Below are positions 1,164 to 14,846 of a stretch of 64,000 nt of DNA, piece after piece. The notes under the pieces were generated by a model. That model was not told the DNA's origin and searched no databases. It saw only the letters and a list, made by a program, of their open reading frames with translations. A program made the translations under genes and the position numbers. The DNA lies in the IMG/VR virus record IMGVR_UViG_3300046819_000361. The stretch is one strand, 5' to 3'. This DNA is from a virus. Its lineage: Duplodnaviria > Caudoviricetes. Position 1 is the stretch's first letter, and the number at the start of each line of letters is the position of its first letter.

Positions 1164-1237
1164 TGGCAGGGATACACGGATTCGAACCATGGATGACTGG
1201 ATCAAAACCAGTTGTGTTACCACTACACCATATCCCA
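1164..1237 (-). tRNA. tRNA-Gln(TTG)
   Basis: Cloverleaf, loop TTTTGAT, CCA encoded. Confidence 0.92.
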
Positions 1238-1247
1238 ATTGTTATTA

Positions 1248-1365
1248 CAGGTTAGCATTTTAAGTTTTCCCAATTAAACTACATTAGTGACCAACCCTAA
1301 CGCTGGGATTCGAACCCAGAACTTTCTTTTACAATAAGATTTAATAAAATTGCTGAAACTAACCT
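1248..1365 (-). ncRNA. Bulged-helix RNA, copy 3: circularly permuted tRNA-Thr(UGU)-like domain (Y RNA/YrlA-like architecture)
   Basis: AGGUUAG-UUUCAGCA handle, then anticodon arm (loop AUUGUAA), T arm, loop-closed acceptor stem, D arm, UGCUAACCUG. Confidence 0.7.
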
Positions 1366-1405
1366 ATTGGTCTTATTCGCTGGTGACTAGCCTCGAATAT
1401 TCTGT

Positions 1406-1468
1406 CAGGATACACATTTTACGGGTTTGATTAGCTGTCAAATGTATGATTGTTGCTGTAGGTATCCT
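1406..1468 (-). ncRNA. Bulged-helix RNA, copy 4 (Ser-GCU-like anticodon stem-loop)
   Basis: AGGAUACC-UACAGCA ... UUUGA-CAGCUAA-UCAAA ... GUAUCCUG. Confidence 0.6.
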
Positions 1469-1487
1469 AGAACTGTTTATGCTATGT

Positions 1488-1515
1488 ATTATACATCATT
1501 TTTATTCATTGTCAA
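1488..1515 (-). promoter_or_regulatory. Sigma70-type promoter
   Basis: TTGACA-16-TATAAT. Confidence 0.75.
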
Positions 1516-1524
1516 TATTTATTT

Positions 1525-1599
1525 TGGAGCGGGTAATGAGATTCGAACTCACGACATTCAGGTTGGCAACTTGAAGCTCTACCACTGAGCTATACCCGC
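1525..1599 (-). tRNA. tRNA-Gly(GCC)
   Basis: Cloverleaf, loop TTGCCAA, CCA. Confidence 0.93.
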
Positions 1600-1606
1600 T
1601 CAAAAT

Positions 1607-1681
1607 TGGCGGACTGTACGGAATTTGAATCCGTGATACCACCGTGACAGGGTGGCGTGATAACCGCTTCACTAACAGTCC
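1607..1681 (-). tRNA. tRNA-Asp(GTC)
   Basis: Cloverleaf, loop CTGTCAC, CCA. Confidence 0.92.
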
Positions 1682-1803
1682 AAAATTGTTGAGTATCTAA
1701 CATCATACAATACTCGGGAGACCTCTACCAGCCTCGTTTTTATTACTGCGCCTATCCGAAGATAGTGTTTCAAATGATATTAAGGTTGCCCAGCTCTAGA
1801 GTT

Positions 1804-1880
<77 letters not shown>

Positions 1881-1886
1881 ATAATT

Positions 1887-2051
1887 CTATTTAAACGGAG
1901 TTTTTTCACAGGCTAATGCATGATGATATGCTATTTTCATAGACTCATATTTTTCCGTTGCTTCGCTTAATTGTTGCTGTAATTTTAGCATATCTTGTTC
2001 TACATAATCAAGATTTCTTTTAACGATATCCGATGTTCTTTTACCTGCCAT
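1887..2051 (-). CDS. Small coiled-coil hypothetical protein (MAGKRTSD...)
   Basis: Downstream part of the track ORF; start overlaps the end of the preceding small ORF. Confidence 0.5.
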   Translation of the reverse strand: MAGKRTSDIVKRNLDYVEQDMLKLQQQLSEATEKYESMKIAYHHALACEKTPFK

Positions 2052-2184
2052 ATATAGACCTTTTAGAAATAAAAGAATCACCCCAGTCGGTAGCATGAAA
2101 TACCGCATATTTTTTAGATTTTTCACCATGTTTTTCATGGAATTTTTTAGTAGCTTCTTCGTTTACTATTGCGGTTCTTTTCAT
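2041..2184 (-). CDS. 47-aa hypothetical protein (MKRTAIVNEEATKKFHEKHG...)
   Basis: Manual translation; fills the gap and abuts genes on both sides. Confidence 0.45.
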   Translation of the reverse strand: MKRTAIVNEEATKKFHEKHGEKSKKYAVFHATDWGDSFISKRSIYGR

Positions 2185-2186
2185 AC

Positions 2187-2561
2187 TTACCTCGCAAATC
2201 CACGATTTCTCAGTAATTGTGATAATTCATATTCGAATGTACCAAAATCAGACCTTTCACGCCCATAAATTGTATCAGGAACAATAATACCAATACTAGT
2301 CAATGCATTGTCAATCGATGGTTCATTAAAAATCGCCCATGGATATTCGTTTGTTTCATTGTTTAACAAATTGGCAATGTTTGCCATCTGTTCACTAGTA
2401 CCACCATTCAATACAATTGCAGTTTTATGGTTTTCAGCCCAATCTACCAATAGTTCGTTAGTTGTACCATATTTGTTGTTGATCTCTTGCAGTGCATGCA
2501 AAGATTGTATACCGTGTTGTATAGAACTCAGGTACATGTTTGTTAAAAAATAAGCTCTCAT
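2187..2561 (-). CDS. Phage peptidyl-tRNA hydrolase II (PTH2)-like protein
   Basis: IQ.GIQ.LHA, W...HKT.IVLNGG, F.EP....LT.IGI pattern recalled for the PTH2 fold. Confidence 0.55.
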   Translation of the reverse strand: MRAYFLTNMYLSSIQHGIQSLHALQEINNKYGTTNELLVDWAENHKTAIVLNGGTSEQMANIANLLNNETNEYPWAIFNEPSIDNALTSIGIIVPDTIYGRERSDFGTFEYELSQLLRNRGFAR

Positions 2562-2634
2562 AGTTTTCCTATATGTTACTGAGTATTTATTATTTGAGGT
2601 TATCAATCATCTGGGTAGTTACCAAAACTAATTA

Positions 2635-2710
2635 GGGGTGACCGATGGGACTTGAACCCATAAAATTCTGAATCACAATCAGGGTCGTCTACCAATTCCG
2701 ACACGGCCAC
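2635..2710 (-). tRNA. tRNA-His(GTG), no encoded CCA
   Basis: Cloverleaf, loop TTGTGAT, C discriminator, 3' end reads CCT; acceptor extended by a flanking inverted repeat. Confidence 0.8.
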
Positions 2711-2728
2711 ACCTAATTAGTCTAATTT

Positions 2729-3214
2729 TATAATAAACCACACTACGGAAGGATTCGAACCTTCGGTTGCCGTCGCACTCAACACACCAGTGTACCTCAA
2801 TACGAATCGAACGTATCTTACCACCATTTATAGTGTAGTTTATTATATAATCATATAGTAAAGTGCATTAAACGAGGGAACACGAATGCTACACATCCTC
2901 CTGTCTCCGGCCCTCAAGCTTAACATCCTCCTGGCCAGTGATGTTAAGGTGACTGATTAATGCACTTTAATATAAAATTATATAGAAACACATGCTGAAG
3001 GACGAACGGCGTATTTCCATCGAAGAACTATATCTTTCTCATCGCCGTATAGCTTCCCGCACGATATAGTCTGAGTTGCGCTTCAGGATGTGTTTTTATA
3101 TAATCATATAATAAAGCATACTACACGGAATTGAACCGTCTTCATTCAAGCCCGGAGCTCAAACTGTGATCCACACAACGCTGATCAGACGCTAATATGC
3201 TTTATTATATGATT
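2729..3214 (-). ncRNA. Four tandem long-stem-closed structured RNAs (2729-2847, 2853-2974, 2979-3102, 3102-3214)
   Basis: Each has a 17-22 bp terminal inverted repeat around a GC-richer structured core; no ORFs. Confidence 0.6.
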
Positions 3215-3290
3215 TGGTAGGACCGCCGAGACTCGAACTCGAATTCCCGGATTAAAAGTCCGGTGTTCTAACCAATTGAACTACGATCCC
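3215..3290 (-). tRNA. tRNA-Lys(TTT)
   Basis: Cloverleaf, loop CTTTTAA, CCA. Confidence 0.93.
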
Positions 3291-3333
3291 AAATTTTCTT
3301 GCCTTCTTTTTCTGTTTTTGTCTTTCGTTTCAT
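3268..3333 (-). CDS. Lys-rich 21-aa mini-ORF reading into tRNA-Lys
   Basis: AGGA SD; MKRKTKTEKEGKKIWDRSSIG-TAG. Confidence 0.4.
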   Translation of the reverse strand: MKRKTKTEKEGKKIWDRSSIG

Positions 3334-3356
3334 AATTATTTCCTATGTTGTTATAG

Positions 3357-3418
3357 CAGGATACGTTTTTACTAGTTGAATTAAAAGTTCAGTGTAAATT
3401 GTTTGCTGAATGTATCCT
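3357..3418 (-). ncRNA. Bulged-helix RNA, copy 5 (Lys-UUU anticodon stem-loop)
   Basis: AGGAUACA-UUCAGCA ... UGAA-CUUUUAA-UUCA ... CGUAUCCUG. Confidence 0.65.
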
Positions 3419-3437
3419 AAAACTGTTTATGCTGTTA

Positions 3438-3465
3438 ATTATACAGCATTTTTATACGTTGTCAA
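3438..3465 (-). promoter_or_regulatory. Sigma70-type promoter
   Basis: TTGACA-16-TATAAT. Confidence 0.7.
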
Positions 3466-3778
3466 TTATTTTATCTGGATATTGTGCATCACGGCGTTCA
3501 ATTTCAGCATATGGACTGTAGCCAGGCTGTAATTCCGTGATATTAGTAAATCCATTGGTTTCTGTAATCAAACTATCATTAGAATCGATAGAACCACGAT
3601 ATTTACTACCATAACTACCTTCTAATTTACCAGTACTCGGATTAAGATCACCCCATTTAGTGTGATTACCACCGATAACTTCAATATAGTAGGTTTTACC
3701 AGTTCGGTATGAATAAACAACATGTCTACCGGTATCTTCAGTTTTTGTAAAAAATTTCTTTCGGGTTTCTTCGTCCAT
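3452..3778 (-). CDS. Conserved phage hypothetical protein
   Basis: Start MDEETRKK with AAGGA SD; longer call overlaps tRNA-Val. Confidence 0.7.
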   Translation of the reverse strand: MDEETRKKFFTKTEDTGRHVVYSYRTGKTYYIEVIGGNHTKWGDLNPSTGKLEGSYGSKYRGSIDSNDSLITETNGFTNITELQPGYSPYAEIERRDAQYPDKIIDNV

Positions 3779-3796
3779 AATAGTTTCCTTTGTGTT

Positions 3797-3870
3797 TGGT
3801 GCTTTAGAAAGGAATCGAACCTCTGTCTGCTCGGTGTAAACGAACGGCCCTACCATTAGACGACTAAAGC
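3797..3870 (-). tRNA. tRNA-Val(TAC)
   Basis: Cloverleaf, loop TTTACAC, CCA. Confidence 0.88.
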
Positions 3871-3879
3871 TATAATTGT

Positions 3880-4047
3880 TGCTTTCTTATTCCCGGCTAT
3901 CACAGAGGTTGCCACTTGTACTTCATGGTTCTCAACTTGCAGGTTCTGGCGGAACAGAATTCTCGTATTGCCAACGTGCTTTTGGTTCAAAGCATACCAC
4001 CCGTGTGTATCACCACACTTCTTATCCTCTGGGTCAGAGTATCCGTT
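3880..4047 (-). ncRNA. Candidate structured ncRNA (~165 nt)
   Basis: Non-coding, GC-elevated; CAGAGG/CCUCUG closing stem and three internal hairpins. Confidence 0.45.
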
Positions 4048-4049
4048 GA

Positions 4050-4328
4050 TTAGACGGTTCGATCTTCAAGAACTTGTTGTTCCCATTTACTTTTTAAATA
4101 GATCTTTTGACCATGCAACCAATATTCTTCTTCTGTAAAATTAGTAATAACAGCAGGGCCATGTTCATTATGATATTTCCCATCTTGGCAATAACAAGTT
4201 CTGCGGCCATCATATCTAATAATTGCTGGTCCATTTGTGTTATGCGATCTTCCATTTTTCATAAAAACTATTGTTGTATCAGATACGCTAATAGTGAGTT
4301 CAGGATTGTCTGGGTTAATATATTCCAT
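4050..4328 (-). CDS. Hypothetical protein with HNxxGPA repeats
   Basis: Two HN.(N/H)GPA(I/V)I repeats. Confidence 0.65.
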   Translation of the reverse strand: MEYINPDNPELTISVSDTTIVFMKNGRSHNTNGPAIIRYDGRRTCYCQDGKYHNEHGPAVITNFTEEEYWLHGQKIYLKSKWEQQVLEDRTV

Positions 4329-4353
4329 AATTACCAAATTGTAAAGTTAAAAT

Positions 4354-4429
4354 TGGTGCTACCGACTGGGATCGAACCAGTATAGCTGGATTTTCAGTCC
4401 AGTGCATGAACCATCACTGCCACAGTAGC
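4354..4429 (-). tRNA. tRNA-Phe(GAA)
   Basis: Cloverleaf, loop CTGAAAA, CCA. Confidence 0.9.
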
Positions 4430-4437
4430 AAAATTAT

Positions 4438-4491
4438 CAGGATACGCTTTTTCATTTTTCAAGAATGTTTTTTAATTGCTGCATGTATCCT
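4438..4491 (-). ncRNA. Bulged-helix RNA, copy 6 (Ser-UGA anticodon stem-loop)
   Basis: AGGAUACA-UGCAGCA ... CAUU-CUUGAAA-AAUG ... GCGUAUCCUG; TTGCAA-17-TATAAT promoter just upstream. Confidence 0.65.
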
Positions 4492-4514
4492 AAAACTGTG
4501 TAAATTATAACGTA

Positions 4515-5045
4515 TTATTTGAACATTTGCAAGATATTTTTCATAGCATCTGTATTACTATCCCATGTTTGTCCGCCAAATCGTCCGTATTCTATACGGT
4601 TATCAGCAGACCATTTATTATAATAATCGGACAATTCACCATTGCATTCCAATAGTGTATCACCGTAATTGATTATCATTACATTAGGATTCATGCAATC
4701 ACGAATTGAATAAACCTTCTCAAACGCTTCTTTAATACCCATGCCATGTTGTATTAGTACTAGAATAGCAGTTGCTGTACTTCTACTAACACCAGCATGA
4801 CAATGAATTAAAACTTTATCAGTATCAGTAAATGTTTTACTGAATTCTAAAATATTTTCAATATTTTGTAAAGTAGGATGTTGATATCCTTCTAATGGTA
4901 CTTCAATATCATGAAATCTTTCTACGTGATGTTCCACATCACAATCAAATACTTTGGTATTTGGATCAACAATGCTAATGACTTTAGTATGGGTTGGTAC
5001 CCATAAACTTGCTTCGTATAATCCTGATATAGTTATATCTAACAT
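4515..5045 (-). CDS. Cys-based protein tyrosine/dual-specificity phosphatase
   Basis: HCHAGVSRS (CX5R) motif. Confidence 0.88.
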   Translation of the reverse strand: MLDITISGLYEASLWVPTHTKVISIVDPNTKVFDCDVEHHVERFHDIEVPLEGYQHPTLQNIENILEFSKTFTDTDKVLIHCHAGVSRSTATAILVLIQHGMGIKEAFEKVYSIRDCMNPNVMIINYGDTLLECNGELSDYYNKWSADNRIEYGRFGGQTWDSNTDAMKNILQMFK

Positions 5046-5061
5046 TTTTTACCTCAAAAAT

Positions 5062-5113
5062 TGGCGGGGCTATAATTGCTGTTAAAATCCTTGACAGGAT
5101 TTATTTTGGCCCC
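5062..5113 (-). ncRNA. Bulged-helix RNA, copy 7 (permuted handle on a CCA-ended acceptor stem)
   Basis: GGGGC...AAUCCU-GUCA-AGGAUU-UUAACAGCA...GCCCC-G-CCA. Confidence 0.6.
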
Positions 5114-5121
5114 ATTATATT

Positions 5122-5197
5122 TGGCGACCCTACCCGGTGACGATCCGGGTTTACTATCGTGAAAGGATAGTGTTCTACCAACGTAAACTATAGGGTC
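5122..5197 (-). tRNA. tRNA-Glu(TTC)
   Basis: Cloverleaf, loop CTTTCAC, atypical T-loop ATCGTCA, CCA. Confidence 0.85.
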
Positions 5198-6024
5198 TTA
5201 TTTTTCGTATATTGGTTTCTACCCGTAATATTCCCAGGTGTTACCCGTTTTCCATTACAAGTTCTTGAACAATATACATTAATTGTTTTTAATTTTTTAT
5301 CACGTGTAAAATTTTTACCACAATGTGAACATGTGTACTCGTATAAAGGTTTATACCCATCGTATAGTGTATAATATTTTTCAGTATTATAAGTTTCTTT
5401 TACATATGTAAAAGCATATTTCAAATCATTAAATCGTAAAACATGTACATTATATCCAAAACTTTCAGCAACCTGTGTTTTTAAATCCACTGATTTTTGA
5501 TTTTCATAACCTTTTGTTTCTATTATAGTTTTATTATCCGATAAAATAAAATCAGGGTAATATTTAATACCATTTCTTTCCAAATAACCGTCAAATCTAG
5601 AAAATTTAATATTATGATCTAAATTGTATATTACCCAGCATAATTCATATGTTGATCCACAATAAATGCCATTATAATATCCTGATTTTGATCTACCAGA
5701 ACCATTTCTATATCCACCTATGTGTTTGGAACTACATTCTTTTGAACAATATTTTTTATTACTCGTTTTTATTATTCTAAAATCTGTTCCACACTCTACA
5801 CATTGTCTAATCTCACGAATAGCAAATTCTTTGCCTTTTGTAGAGGCAGGTTTAATACCTAGCTTCTTAAATGTAAGAGATGTTTTTATCTTTTGTTCTT
5901 CACTTGGTTTCCATCCAGAGTCTTTCCGTTTTCTGTTATTATATTTCGCTGAACACGATCTATTACAAAACTTTTTTGCATCTTTACTGATTAAAGTGTT
6001 TCCACATTCTAAACAATTATTCAT
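5188..6024 (-). CDS. Free-standing homing endonuclease, PD-(D/E)xK type with Zn-finger repeats
   Basis: YYPDF...IIETKG; three CxxC..CSxxC modules; TATAAATA at 6044-6051. Confidence 0.75.
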   Translation of the reverse strand: MNNCLECGNTLISKDAKKFCNRSCSAKYNNRKRKDSGWKPSEEQKIKTSLTFKKLGIKPASTKGKEFAIREIRQCVECGTDFRIIKTSNKKYCSKECSSKHIGGYRNGSGRSKSGYYNGIYCGSTYELCWVIYNLDHNIKFSRFDGYLERNGIKYYPDFILSDNKTIIETKGYENQKSVDLKTQVAESFGYNVHVLRFNDLKYAFTYVKETYNTEKYYTLYDGYKPLYEYTCSHCGKNFTRDKKLKTINVYCSRTCNGKRVTPGNITGRNQYTKNKTL

Positions 6025-6081
6025 CTGTAATCTCCATATAGAGTATTTATATGGAATTGAACTTTATTGCATTTTTTGATT

Positions 6082-6111
6082 ATAGTGTTCTAACCATTAA
6101 ACTACCAGGAT
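6082..6111 (-). pseudogene. Orphan 5' half of a tRNA-Glu-like gene
   Basis: ATCCTGG-TA-GTTTAATGGTTAGAAC-A-CTATA matches the D arm and anticodon 5' strand of the downstream tRNA-Glu; no matching 3' half. Confidence 0.65.
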
Positions 6112-6117
6112 ATAAAC

Positions 6118-6230
6118 TTTTATATAGAAACACACTCGTTTCTGAGCTTTCGGTATGTATGCCTACACTTTAGGATAGCCCCTGCGTCCAGTTGCTCAGT
6201 ATCCCTACCGTGAATGTGTTTTTATATAAA
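6118..6230 (-). ncRNA. Long-stem-closed structured RNA
   Basis: tttatatagaaacaca/tgtgtttttatataaa closing stem, same as at 2979-3102; crossing internal complementarities. Confidence 0.55.
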
Positions 6231-6231
6231 T

Positions 6232-6310
6232 TGGTCTCCGTAGCAGGATTTGAACCTGCGAATCCTCTCGATCCCAAATCGAGCGCTCTACCAAACTGAG
6301 CTATACGGAG
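6232..6310 (-). tRNA. tRNA-Pro(TGG)
   Basis: Cloverleaf, loop TTTGGGA, CCA. Confidence 0.92.
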
Positions 6311-6323
6311 ATAATTAAAATAT

Positions 6324-6416
6324 TGGTGGGTGTCCACGGATTCGAACCGCGAATGTTTACCACGAGGGACTTGATTTACAGTCAAGAGAGGCACACGCCA
6401 TAGCCTCAAGACACCC
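6324..6416 (-). tRNA. tRNA-Tyr(GTA), long D and variable arms
   Basis: Loop CTGTAAA, GAGGC/GCCTC D stem, CCA. Confidence 0.85.
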
Positions 6417-6423
6417 AATAATT

Positions 6424-6630
6424 TATAACACTCTCCCACTATGTGTTTAGACGGTTCGTAGCCGAATGAAGAGTGTATATTAAAACATACTCACTTTAAC
6501 TTGTCAAGAACCGTAATTCTTAATGCTGATCTAGTATGTTTTAATATTAAAACACACTGGTGGGTCGTTCAAATCCACTGTCTACATTCCGTAGAAATCA
6601 AATTCTACTATTCTCAATGTGTTTTAATAT
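6424..6630 (-). ncRNA. Three tandem long-stem-closed hairpin RNAs (6424-6479, 6478-6546, 6544-6630)
   Basis: Terminal inverted repeats such as tattaaaacatact/agtatgttttaata. Confidence 0.5.
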
Positions 6631-6771
6631 TTCTAGGTTTTTCCACACACCACACAAGGTGCTTCTCATCCCCTAGACCGCCCTCATTAATAGCTCATTT
6701 TTATAGTGGTGAGCAGAATCGCGTTTTCTAATAGAGACCAATATTTCATTCTCTATACCACTGTACTTCAT

Positions 6772-6800
6772 ATTATAATCTGTGTTTCTGTGTCTGTCAA
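6772..6800 (-). promoter_or_regulatory. Sigma70-type promoter of the tRNA array
   Basis: TTGACA-17-TATAAT. Confidence 0.8.
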
Positions 6801-6826
6801 CTACTTTTTTTAAGGAGTCTAAAACT

Positions 6827-6906
6827 AAAAAACCCTGAGAGTTTTCACTTTCAGGGTTCTTTGAAAAATTAACTTATAATATTAAATTATGTCTTCAAAG
6901 AACCCT
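6827..6906 (-). terminator. Intrinsic terminator with competing 13-bp antiterminator (attenuator)
   Basis: AACCCUGA/UCAGGGUU-UUUU terminator; 6894-6906 perfectly complements 6853-6865. Confidence 0.7.
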
Positions 6907-7024
6907 CACGATACTCCGGTGTGCGATCATTAATTAAACTAAATGCACACCATACAGACGCAATCGAGCCGCCTTTTAAGGTTGATTGTAGTTTAAATTG
7001 TTGATGTAATGATTGCATTTCCAT
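6887..7024 (-). CDS. Putative attenuator leader peptide (45 aa, all 20 amino acids)
   Basis: AAGGA SD; last codons form the antiterminator strand; TTGACA-17-TATAAT at 7076-7104. Confidence 0.6.
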   Translation of the reverse strand: MEMQSLHQQFKLQSTLKGGSIASVWCAFSLINDRTPEYREGSLKT

Positions 7025-7200
7025 TTGTATCAATTTTCCTTTAATTTCATCGGTTGACCCCAACTGATGAAGCGTATTATACAATTATTTAGTTTCTTTG
7101 TCAAGCACTTTTTAAAAAAGTTTTTATTTTTTTTATAATTGTATTTTTATTTAGTAAAAATTCTTATTTACTAGTCAAAATAGCTGTTTTTCAGCATATT

Positions 7201-8354: not shown

Positions 8355-8885
8355 AATACTAAAGGAGAACTAACGTTCTCCTGTTCTTCGCTATCGCTCA
8401 TCACATTTTTTATAATTTCTATCTTACCTATTCAACTAGATTACGATTTACTTTTGCCCCCATAAAGGGAGCAAAAAAATAATTTCAACTGAGTTGACTT
8501 CATTAGTAGAGTTACACTGGTTACAGAGGCGGTTGGCCGATACCTCGAAGTGCGTTTTTGTTTCTGTTGTCCAACGGTGGCATTAGGAAAATACTCTACC
8601 ATATTCCTAATACGTCCAGGAATTACCTGGTCATTTAGCCTTTTTATCTTTTGTTTAAACATTCGAAATTGGTTGTACGTAGGCGTATCCAATCATCATT
8701 TGCATCACAATGTGCAAGTAGTCGAATGAGTCGCTGCTTCTACTCAGCTGTTTCCCTCCATGCGAAGAACATTCCATTTCCTGGGGCACCTGTCAAACCA
8801 CCGGTGCGAGTGTATCAGAAGTGTATAGCCTGAAAAAGTGCCTGTGAAATCATATTTATCGTTGCCTAAATTTATTTGCCTAATG
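8355..8885 (-). ncRNA. Candidate large (~500 nt) structured ncRNA
   Basis: No credible ORF, at least 8 hairpins, TAGACA-17-TATAAT promoter at 8891-8919. Confidence 0.45.
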
Positions 8886-10261: not shown

Positions 10262-10336
10262 TGGTGCACCCGATGGGATTCGAACCCATTGTCGCAAGTT
10301 TTAGAGGCTTGTGCTATACCTAGTAGCTTCGGGTGC
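10262..10336 (-). tRNA. Amber suppressor tRNA (anticodon CTA)
   Basis: Cloverleaf; CAAGC-CTCTAAA-ACTTG puts CTA at 34-36; CCA. Confidence 0.8.
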
Positions 10337-14326: not shown

Positions 14327-14846
14327 GGTATTTTTGGTTATAAGGTATTTCCTACCCCAGAATTCGCTGGTTATTAAGCAGCGATAGCATCAAAGATGCC
14401 ATCTACAGTGTAGAATTCAAATTTAGAATCGTTTGCGATTACTATGTTTATGCTGATTAGGTCAGTCATATCTCCTGTTGCCTTCTCCACTATTACACCA
14501 CGTCGAAACCAACTGTCATTCCCATCATAAAAACATAGGTACTCCCCTTTGAAGGGGCAGGGAGTTTATGGCTATGGCCCCACTCTGATACCAACCTATG
14601 TTCTTATGGTGGAAATGCCCGGGGTCGAACCGGGGTCCGCAATGCCTTTATTTTGAAGGAATAACAACAATTCTGTATATCTATACCGCACACCCTTGCG
14701 ACTTCAGCCTGTTAAGGTAGAGCTACTAAATAGAAGTCATAGAGTTCTATATGTTCGCATAGATAAGTTAAATATCTAACTATGGTTCAATAATGGCGTA
14801 CCACTCCTAATCGTTTGTACTATGTACCGGATTTAAGTTAGACTAT
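14327..14846 (-). ncRNA. ssrA: Circularly permuted (two-piece) tmRNA; tag ANDSKFEFYTVDGIFDAIAA at 14374-14436
   Basis: Acceptor piece ends GGUUCGACCCCGGGCAUUUCCACCA (14607), coding piece starts GGGAAUG (14523); G3-U70; promoter at 14853-14880; 5' boundary uncertain. Confidence 0.88.

Follow-up and report, generated by a model that had tools for sequence, protein, structure and literature searches.

A leader peptide unit with a candidate transcription attenuator at the head of a tRNA array in large freshwater phages

Results

A leader unit lies between two promoters upstream of a phage tRNA array

The window, by which we mean the whole stretch of 64,000 nucleotides that was analysed, is part of a large uncultured phage genome and carries tail genes, ribonucleotide reductase and DnaK, together with 12 tRNAs. 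Its DNA was found in lake and freshwater metagenomes, contigs carrying relatives reach 306 kb, and the leader region is missing from the nearest virus record (G001), which is a fragment. A permuted tmRNA at 14338-14720 (minus strand) also fits the betaproteobacterial tmRNA model, and this match is the one hint of a host among the Betaproteobacteria. A Polynucleobacter-1 RNA lies near it at 8657-8812 (minus strand), and the relative L026 has a peptidyl-tRNA hydrolase (PTH2) gene within its tRNA array; together the three could form a translation-rescue neighbourhood. Upstream of the array, a tRNA with a CUA anticodon (10262-10336, minus strand), kept there in many relatives, is a candidate amber suppressor, although TAG still ends 5 of 48 long ORFs. 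The leader unit consists of the following parts.

7148..7154, minus strand: T4-late-like promoter motif (C/A)TAAATA, upstream; about -66 from the ATG in 9/12 relatives, matching offset in the window
7076..7104, minus strand: P1, sigma-70 consensus promoter (12/12 consensus, 17-nt spacer), kept in all variants with upstream DNA
7092-7086, minus strand: late-like motif inside the P1 spacer, present in 10/12 P1 spacers
7046..7071, minus strand: 5' hairpin of the leader RNA (MFE fold), 3/8 pairs changed on both sides
7037..7041, minus strand: Shine-Dalgarno (SD) core; purine core retained in relatives, weaker in L019 and L023
6887..7024, minus strand: leader ORF, 45 codons and UAA, ATG start, all 20 amino acids and an internal Met
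6918..6951, minus strand: helix A within the ORF (6951-6945 with 6924-6918), alifold prediction, 2 pairs changed on both sides
6907..6917, minus strand: candidate pause site directly behind helix A (G-10 6917, U-1 6908, G+1 6907), full consensus in the window
6853..6906, minus strand: antiterminator hairpin, -24.8 kcal/mol, its 5' arm being the last ORF codons
6825..6858, minus strand: intrinsic terminator (stem 6858-6831, U tract), -15.4 kcal/mol
6772..6800, minus strand: P2, sigma-70 promoter (12/12 consensus) downstream of the terminator, late-like motif absent
1164..6416, minus strand: downstream tRNA array, 11 tRNAs in the window, extending past the window start

An earlier note on this DNA had described P1, the SD and an ORF of 45 codons in which every amino acid occurs, and the sequence check found each in its place, all on the minus strand. 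The note had also paired 6894-6906 with 6853-6865 over 13 bp. This repeat is indeed perfect; it is part of a longer hairpin of 24 nt and shares bases with the 5' arm of the terminator. It is the sole perfect inverted repeat of 13 bp with a gap of at most 40 nt in the 64 kb, while ten shuffles gave one in total. The leader is likewise the only free-standing ORF with all 20 residues among 98 ATG-to-stop frames of 38-50 codons, so that the window's only close perfect repeat of 13 bp and its only such short ORF coincide. A 65-residue ORF from TTG 7084 was rejected since it starts within the promoter and its extension is not kept. A-tract-centred dyads lie directly upstream of both -35 boxes (6800-6820 and 7104-7120) and could be UP elements or operators; the dyad at P2 is kept in some relatives despite sequence change. 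In one sample, contigs assembled from an RNA library span 6893-7076, 6904-7073 and 6573-6811, but as DNA carry-over is possible and they give no transcript ends, we do not count them as evidence.

The leader ORF is conserved as a frame among related phages

Seven viral and three metagenome contigs were found by DNA patterns that did not require the ORF, and more via protein searches, giving a family of 14 variants (13 as DNA and one as protein only) whose ORFs have 42-46 codons and whose peptides are as little as about 50% identical. Most homologues came from the protein search, which favours intact ORFs; the ORF was kept in every match found by DNA pattern alone. L008 and L009 were discarded as chance matches, and four matches in bacterial genomes as unrelated GC-rich palindromes. 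DNA and peptide searches of cultured phages found no relative, and no Pfam family matches. The Rfam search gave no family match for the leader, His_leader reaching 23.4 bits against a cut-off of 49 and on the terminator part only, and the T-box riboswitch gave no match at the gathering score nor at E<=10.

The block from P1 to P2 is conserved although the flanking genes differ among relatives, and the first tRNA lies about 0.4-1 kb downstream of the unit wherever the contig is long enough, three short contigs stopping before any tRNA. ATG, UAA (the stop of every leader ORF) and an SD-like purine core are retained, with SD duplex energies of -3.7 to -6.7 kcal/mol. All five indel events within the ORF preserve the frame, their lengths being multiples of 3, whereas indels in the flanks are mostly of 1-2 nt, and the other same-strand frames are closed in all eight variants checked. 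The dN/dS ratio is 0.67 and the three codon positions are equally variable (23, 24 and 24 of 39), a pattern indicating that the ORF is kept as a frame and not as a protein. We judge the leader unit to be a real, conserved regulatory element heading the tRNA array of large freshwater phages.

The leader peptide is unusually complete in amino acids

All 20 residues occur in 0.6% of the 45-residue windows of the phage's own proteins and in 1.5-2.3% of random ORFs. The earlier note had counted 16 different residues in 21 consecutive codons; the diversity holds and the figure does not, the richest 21-codon window having 17. Six of nine representatives contain all 20 residues (initiator Met excluded, internal Met counted) and the others 19, 19 and 17, lacking Phe twice and Ala, Asp and Trp once each. 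Permuting residues within columns predicts 1.8 complete leaders of 9 (P=0.0004); once the window is left out, the prediction is 1.5 of 8 (P=0.001). We also simulated drift along the tree, starting from the window ORF itself, allowing no stops and, as an option, freezing the invariant columns. Of the 7 diverged relatives, 0.25-0.77 were expected to be complete and 5 are (P<=0.005). When one member per lineage is taken (4-5 independent lineages), P ranges from <0.001 to 0.58 depending on the pick.

Asp, Met, Phe, Ala and Gln occupy different columns in different lineages. In one clade the usual Asp is gone and a new one sits inside a 6-nt insertion, and the internal Met is found in several different columns. 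Completeness is thus retained in homologous leaders while the sequence drifts, a comparison that the earlier note had proposed as a check. The codon (isoacceptor) diversity of the leaders shows no excess over expectation, which places any selection at the amino-acid level, and the leader peptide appears to be selected for its composition and not for its sequence. There is no conserved run of control codons; many amino acids are singletons, Pro having one codon in most variants. The diverse half of the ORF is the one that stretches from helix A up to the antiterminator, where the window's 19 codons specify 15 residue types (P~0.01 against the phage's proteins); this would be where the ribosome races the polymerase after release from a pause.

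Folding models predict a switch governed by ribosome position

Pairs changed on both sides were found in the 5' hairpin (3), for which we suggest a role in 5' protection, in helix A (2) and in the terminator (2). Overall 96.5% of cells are paired against 31-46% in slid controls, counts that related sequences inflate. The earlier note had proposed compensatory pairing as a check, and the terminator passes it (2 of 8 pairs compensated, 100% paired). In the antiterminator, 11 of the 12 pairs of the core are invariant and show no covariation, one upper-stem pair being compensated, so that the core is conserved and not proven by covariation. The window's MFE fold also contains a long rod that spans the ORF; relatives do not keep this rod, and we discarded it as the functional structure.

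The antiterminator is more stable than the terminator by 7-11 kcal/mol. We folded eight variants under ribosome-footprint constraints, which yields equilibrium and not kinetic folds. With a ribosome over the last seven codons or the stop, 100% terminator was obtained; without a ribosome, 53-100% antiterminator. For a footprint of 9 nt, stalls at least 9 codons before the stop gave mostly 50-100% antiterminator, a few outliers being low, and larger footprints moved the boundary 1-2 codons upstream. The switch lies at a constant distance from the stop in all eight modelled variants, with 33-34 nt between stop and terminator. The earlier note's view that a ribosome reaching the stop masks the antiterminator and brings about termination was thus reproduced in silico. 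Its view that stalling at any codon allows read-through agrees with the model for most upstream stalls and fails for the last 7-8 codons, which in these folds are not sensed. At the edge of the switch, eight codons ahead of the stop, stands the single Tyr of the window, and in the insertion clade Asp.

Of the trp/his-type geometry that had been claimed, the mutually exclusive hairpins stand. The default differs from that of his, for the untranslated leader is predicted to read through. A strong anti-antiterminator was sought and none was found, the antiterminator arm pairing weakly and transiently with the SD; this pairing may block a second ribosome. Helix A, a candidate pause hairpin for RNA polymerase, forms in most variants once a ribosome covers the first codons. 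In the window, as in 7 of 13 variants, its end lies at -11 of a G-10 U-1 G+1 site; the other 6 of the 13 have an incomplete pause consensus.

The array has further promoters

Two close relatives have near-complete arrays of 25 and 24-25 tRNAs, each covering 19 amino acids and 20 when combined. P2 is present in every variant and several further sigma-70 promoters lie inside the array, so that an attenuator cannot be the sole input, and the additive control that the earlier note had allowed for is borne out. As a loose scan of the array strand found no U-tract terminator besides that of the leader, read-through could run far. Matches to the T4-late-like motif (T4 late promoter consensus: PMC5259590) are non-coding in 22 of 29 minus-strand cases in the window, mostly just before genes, and also occur within the tRNA array. 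Since the motif is seen in P1 spacers and in none of the P2 spacers, the leader may matter most late in infection, and its control is perhaps mainly late.

The array region holds other features. A repeated element with a conserved 7-bp closing stem and a CAGCAA motif (4491-4439, 3418-3358 and 1468-1407, minus strand; also in L038, L039 and L026) has at least two inner hairpins resembling anticodon stem-loops, with UGA and UUU at the loop centre. Two copies follow sigma-70 promoters, and the elements are possible tRNA decoys. A Lys-rich ORF of 21 codons that has an SD (3332-3267, minus strand), seen in the window and in L038, directly follows the Lys-anticodon-like element and runs into tRNA-Lys(UUU). 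A 278-residue Cys-rich endonuclease-like ORF (5188-6024, minus strand), with its own late-like motif and no Pfam match, sits between tRNA-Pro and tRNA-Glu; as these are adjacent in L038, it is probably mobile. Structured cassettes with long AT-rich closing stems (6424-6631 and 6118-6230, minus strand) lie between P2 and the first tRNAs and are kept in L017 and L023.

Discussion

A probable ribosome-coupled attenuator

We propose that the leader unit is a transcription attenuator, coupled to the ribosome, that gauges the cell's general capacity for decoding and regulates additional transcription of the tRNA array. Resting on comparative and folding analyses, this reading has in our estimate a probability of roughly 70%. 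Host RNA polymerase would start at P1, a promoter evident in the DNA and presumably used both early and late, and would pause behind helix A, a covarying hairpin, while a ribosome loads. The ribosome would melt helix A at about codon 22, after which ribosome and polymerase would race. When amino acids are delivered quickly, the model has the ribosome cover the last seven codons and the stop, so that no antiterminator forms and the RNA ends at about 6827. When a charged tRNA is cut or lacking, or some other block halts translation, the ribosome lags in the model and the antiterminator forms first; read-through transcripts would then supplement the output of P2 and the internal promoters, as presumably also in vivo. 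The peptide would be a by-product, its composition selected and its sequence not. Since the untranslated default is read-through, initiation blocks, ribosome damage and missing tRNAs are expected to elicit the same response.

The analysis is evenly poised on a more specific proposal, that a leader complete for 20 amino acids and for initiator and elongator Met is a pan-amino-acid sensor of any depletion of charged tRNA, for instance by anti-phage tRNA nucleases, which would raise a near-complete tRNA set on demand and, late in infection, dominate the control of the array. Single codons in place of runs make weak sensors and would sense only severe shortage.

An attenuator could instead sense bulk ribosome speed or coupling (antibiotics, an initiation block, shut-off) or few amino acids, with completeness a by-product of ancestry and of the constraints of RNA structure. 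The conserved Trp, Cys, Pro and C-terminal residues do fall in helix A or the antiterminator, codon diversity is ordinary, and in one lineage the leader holds no more than 17 amino acids. With the blind last codons set aside, moreover, all His and Lys codons, and usually those for Gln, precede the point at which the pause is presumed to be released; a shortage of these amino acids would register only with a pause that times out. Against this, drift with all invariant columns frozen still predicts 0.5 complete leaders of 7 where 5 are seen, and lost residues are regained at new positions, as with the inserted Asp; we hold this explanation to be unlikely.

It is highly unlikely, in our view, that the unit is a stand-alone small gene, in which transcripts from P1 would always end at the terminator and be either a structured small RNA or an mRNA of 245 nt encoding a functional protein of 45 residues, with P2 driving the array. 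The unit has a promoter, 5' hairpin and terminator of its own, the window leader RNA folds with z = -5.7, and P2 follows in every variant. However, the dN/dS ratio, the absence of a third-position bias, the lack of Pfam and Rfam matches and the unconserved rod speak against a selected protein or RNA, and an invariant antiterminator that outcompetes the terminator in stability would be purposeless at a constitutive 3' end. Hardly credible is an arrest peptide sensing a ligand or factor (TnaC/SpeFL-like) and holding the ribosome at the stop to force termination: PEYR and the C-terminal residues are invariant and Trp-Cys is conserved upstream, but a two-codon insertion between PEYR and the stop shifts the register in one clade, the antiterminator fixes the C-terminal codons at the nucleotide level, and completeness is left unexplained.

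It has long been asked why phages carry tRNA sets, and current studies favour the replacement of tRNAs cut by defence systems (PMC10264068, PMC11555353). If the attenuator reading is true, tRNA output would be tied to decoding speed, so that the phage monitors and answers the state of the host tRNA pool, and the leader makes the replacement idea testable with a 340-bp reporter. Attenuation would then reach beyond single amino acids and biosynthetic genes, acting on tRNA genes and as a general gauge of translation, with an unusual selection on peptide composition rather than sequence. The leader is also a possible one-piece sensor of translation stress.

Comparison with known systems

Phage-encoded tRNAs take the place of host tRNAs that have been cut, with a rescue that depends on how strongly they are expressed (PMC11555353; also PMC11464382, PMC10264068). 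The proposed function has tRNA replacement in common with this counter-defence (retron-Eco7/PtuAB, PrrC, PARIS), where PMC11555353 reports a strong promoter and does not mention a leader or attenuation. Our literature search, outside which most subscription papers lie, found no published attenuator or feedback control on phage tRNA genes.

Like the classical leader-peptide attenuators (hisL, trpL, pheL, leuL, thrL and the multivalent ilv leaders), the phage leader has a short, presumably translated ORF with an SD between a promoter and the first gene that would be controlled. They also share a mutually exclusive terminator and antiterminator and read-through upon slow translation (PMC4046918), properties that on the phage side are predicted by the model. 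Helix A ends at the same position as the hisL pause hairpin, which ends at -11 of a pause site G-10 Y-1 G+1 (PMC9291695). However, classical leaders use runs of control codons, where the phage leader has roughly a single codon per amino acid for all 20; termination is the default of the untranslated his leader (PMC4046918), whereas the phage leader reads through in the equilibrium model; and the classical targets are genes of amino-acid synthesis or synthetases, whereas a tRNA array lies downstream here. The phage leaders are also longer, with 42-46 codons against 16 in hisL. Because it departs from the amino-acid operons in these three defining features (codon runs, default termination and target genes), we do not file the phage leader as a member of that family. 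The mgtL leader of Salmonella mgtA is proline-biased and acts through Rho (PMC8346122), whereas most variants of the phage leader have a single Pro, and the unit combines an intrinsic terminator with a complete amino-acid set. In mgtL any uncoupling of translation from transcription raises downstream transcription (PMC6460261), and it is this sign of the response that the phage leader, as modelled, resembles.
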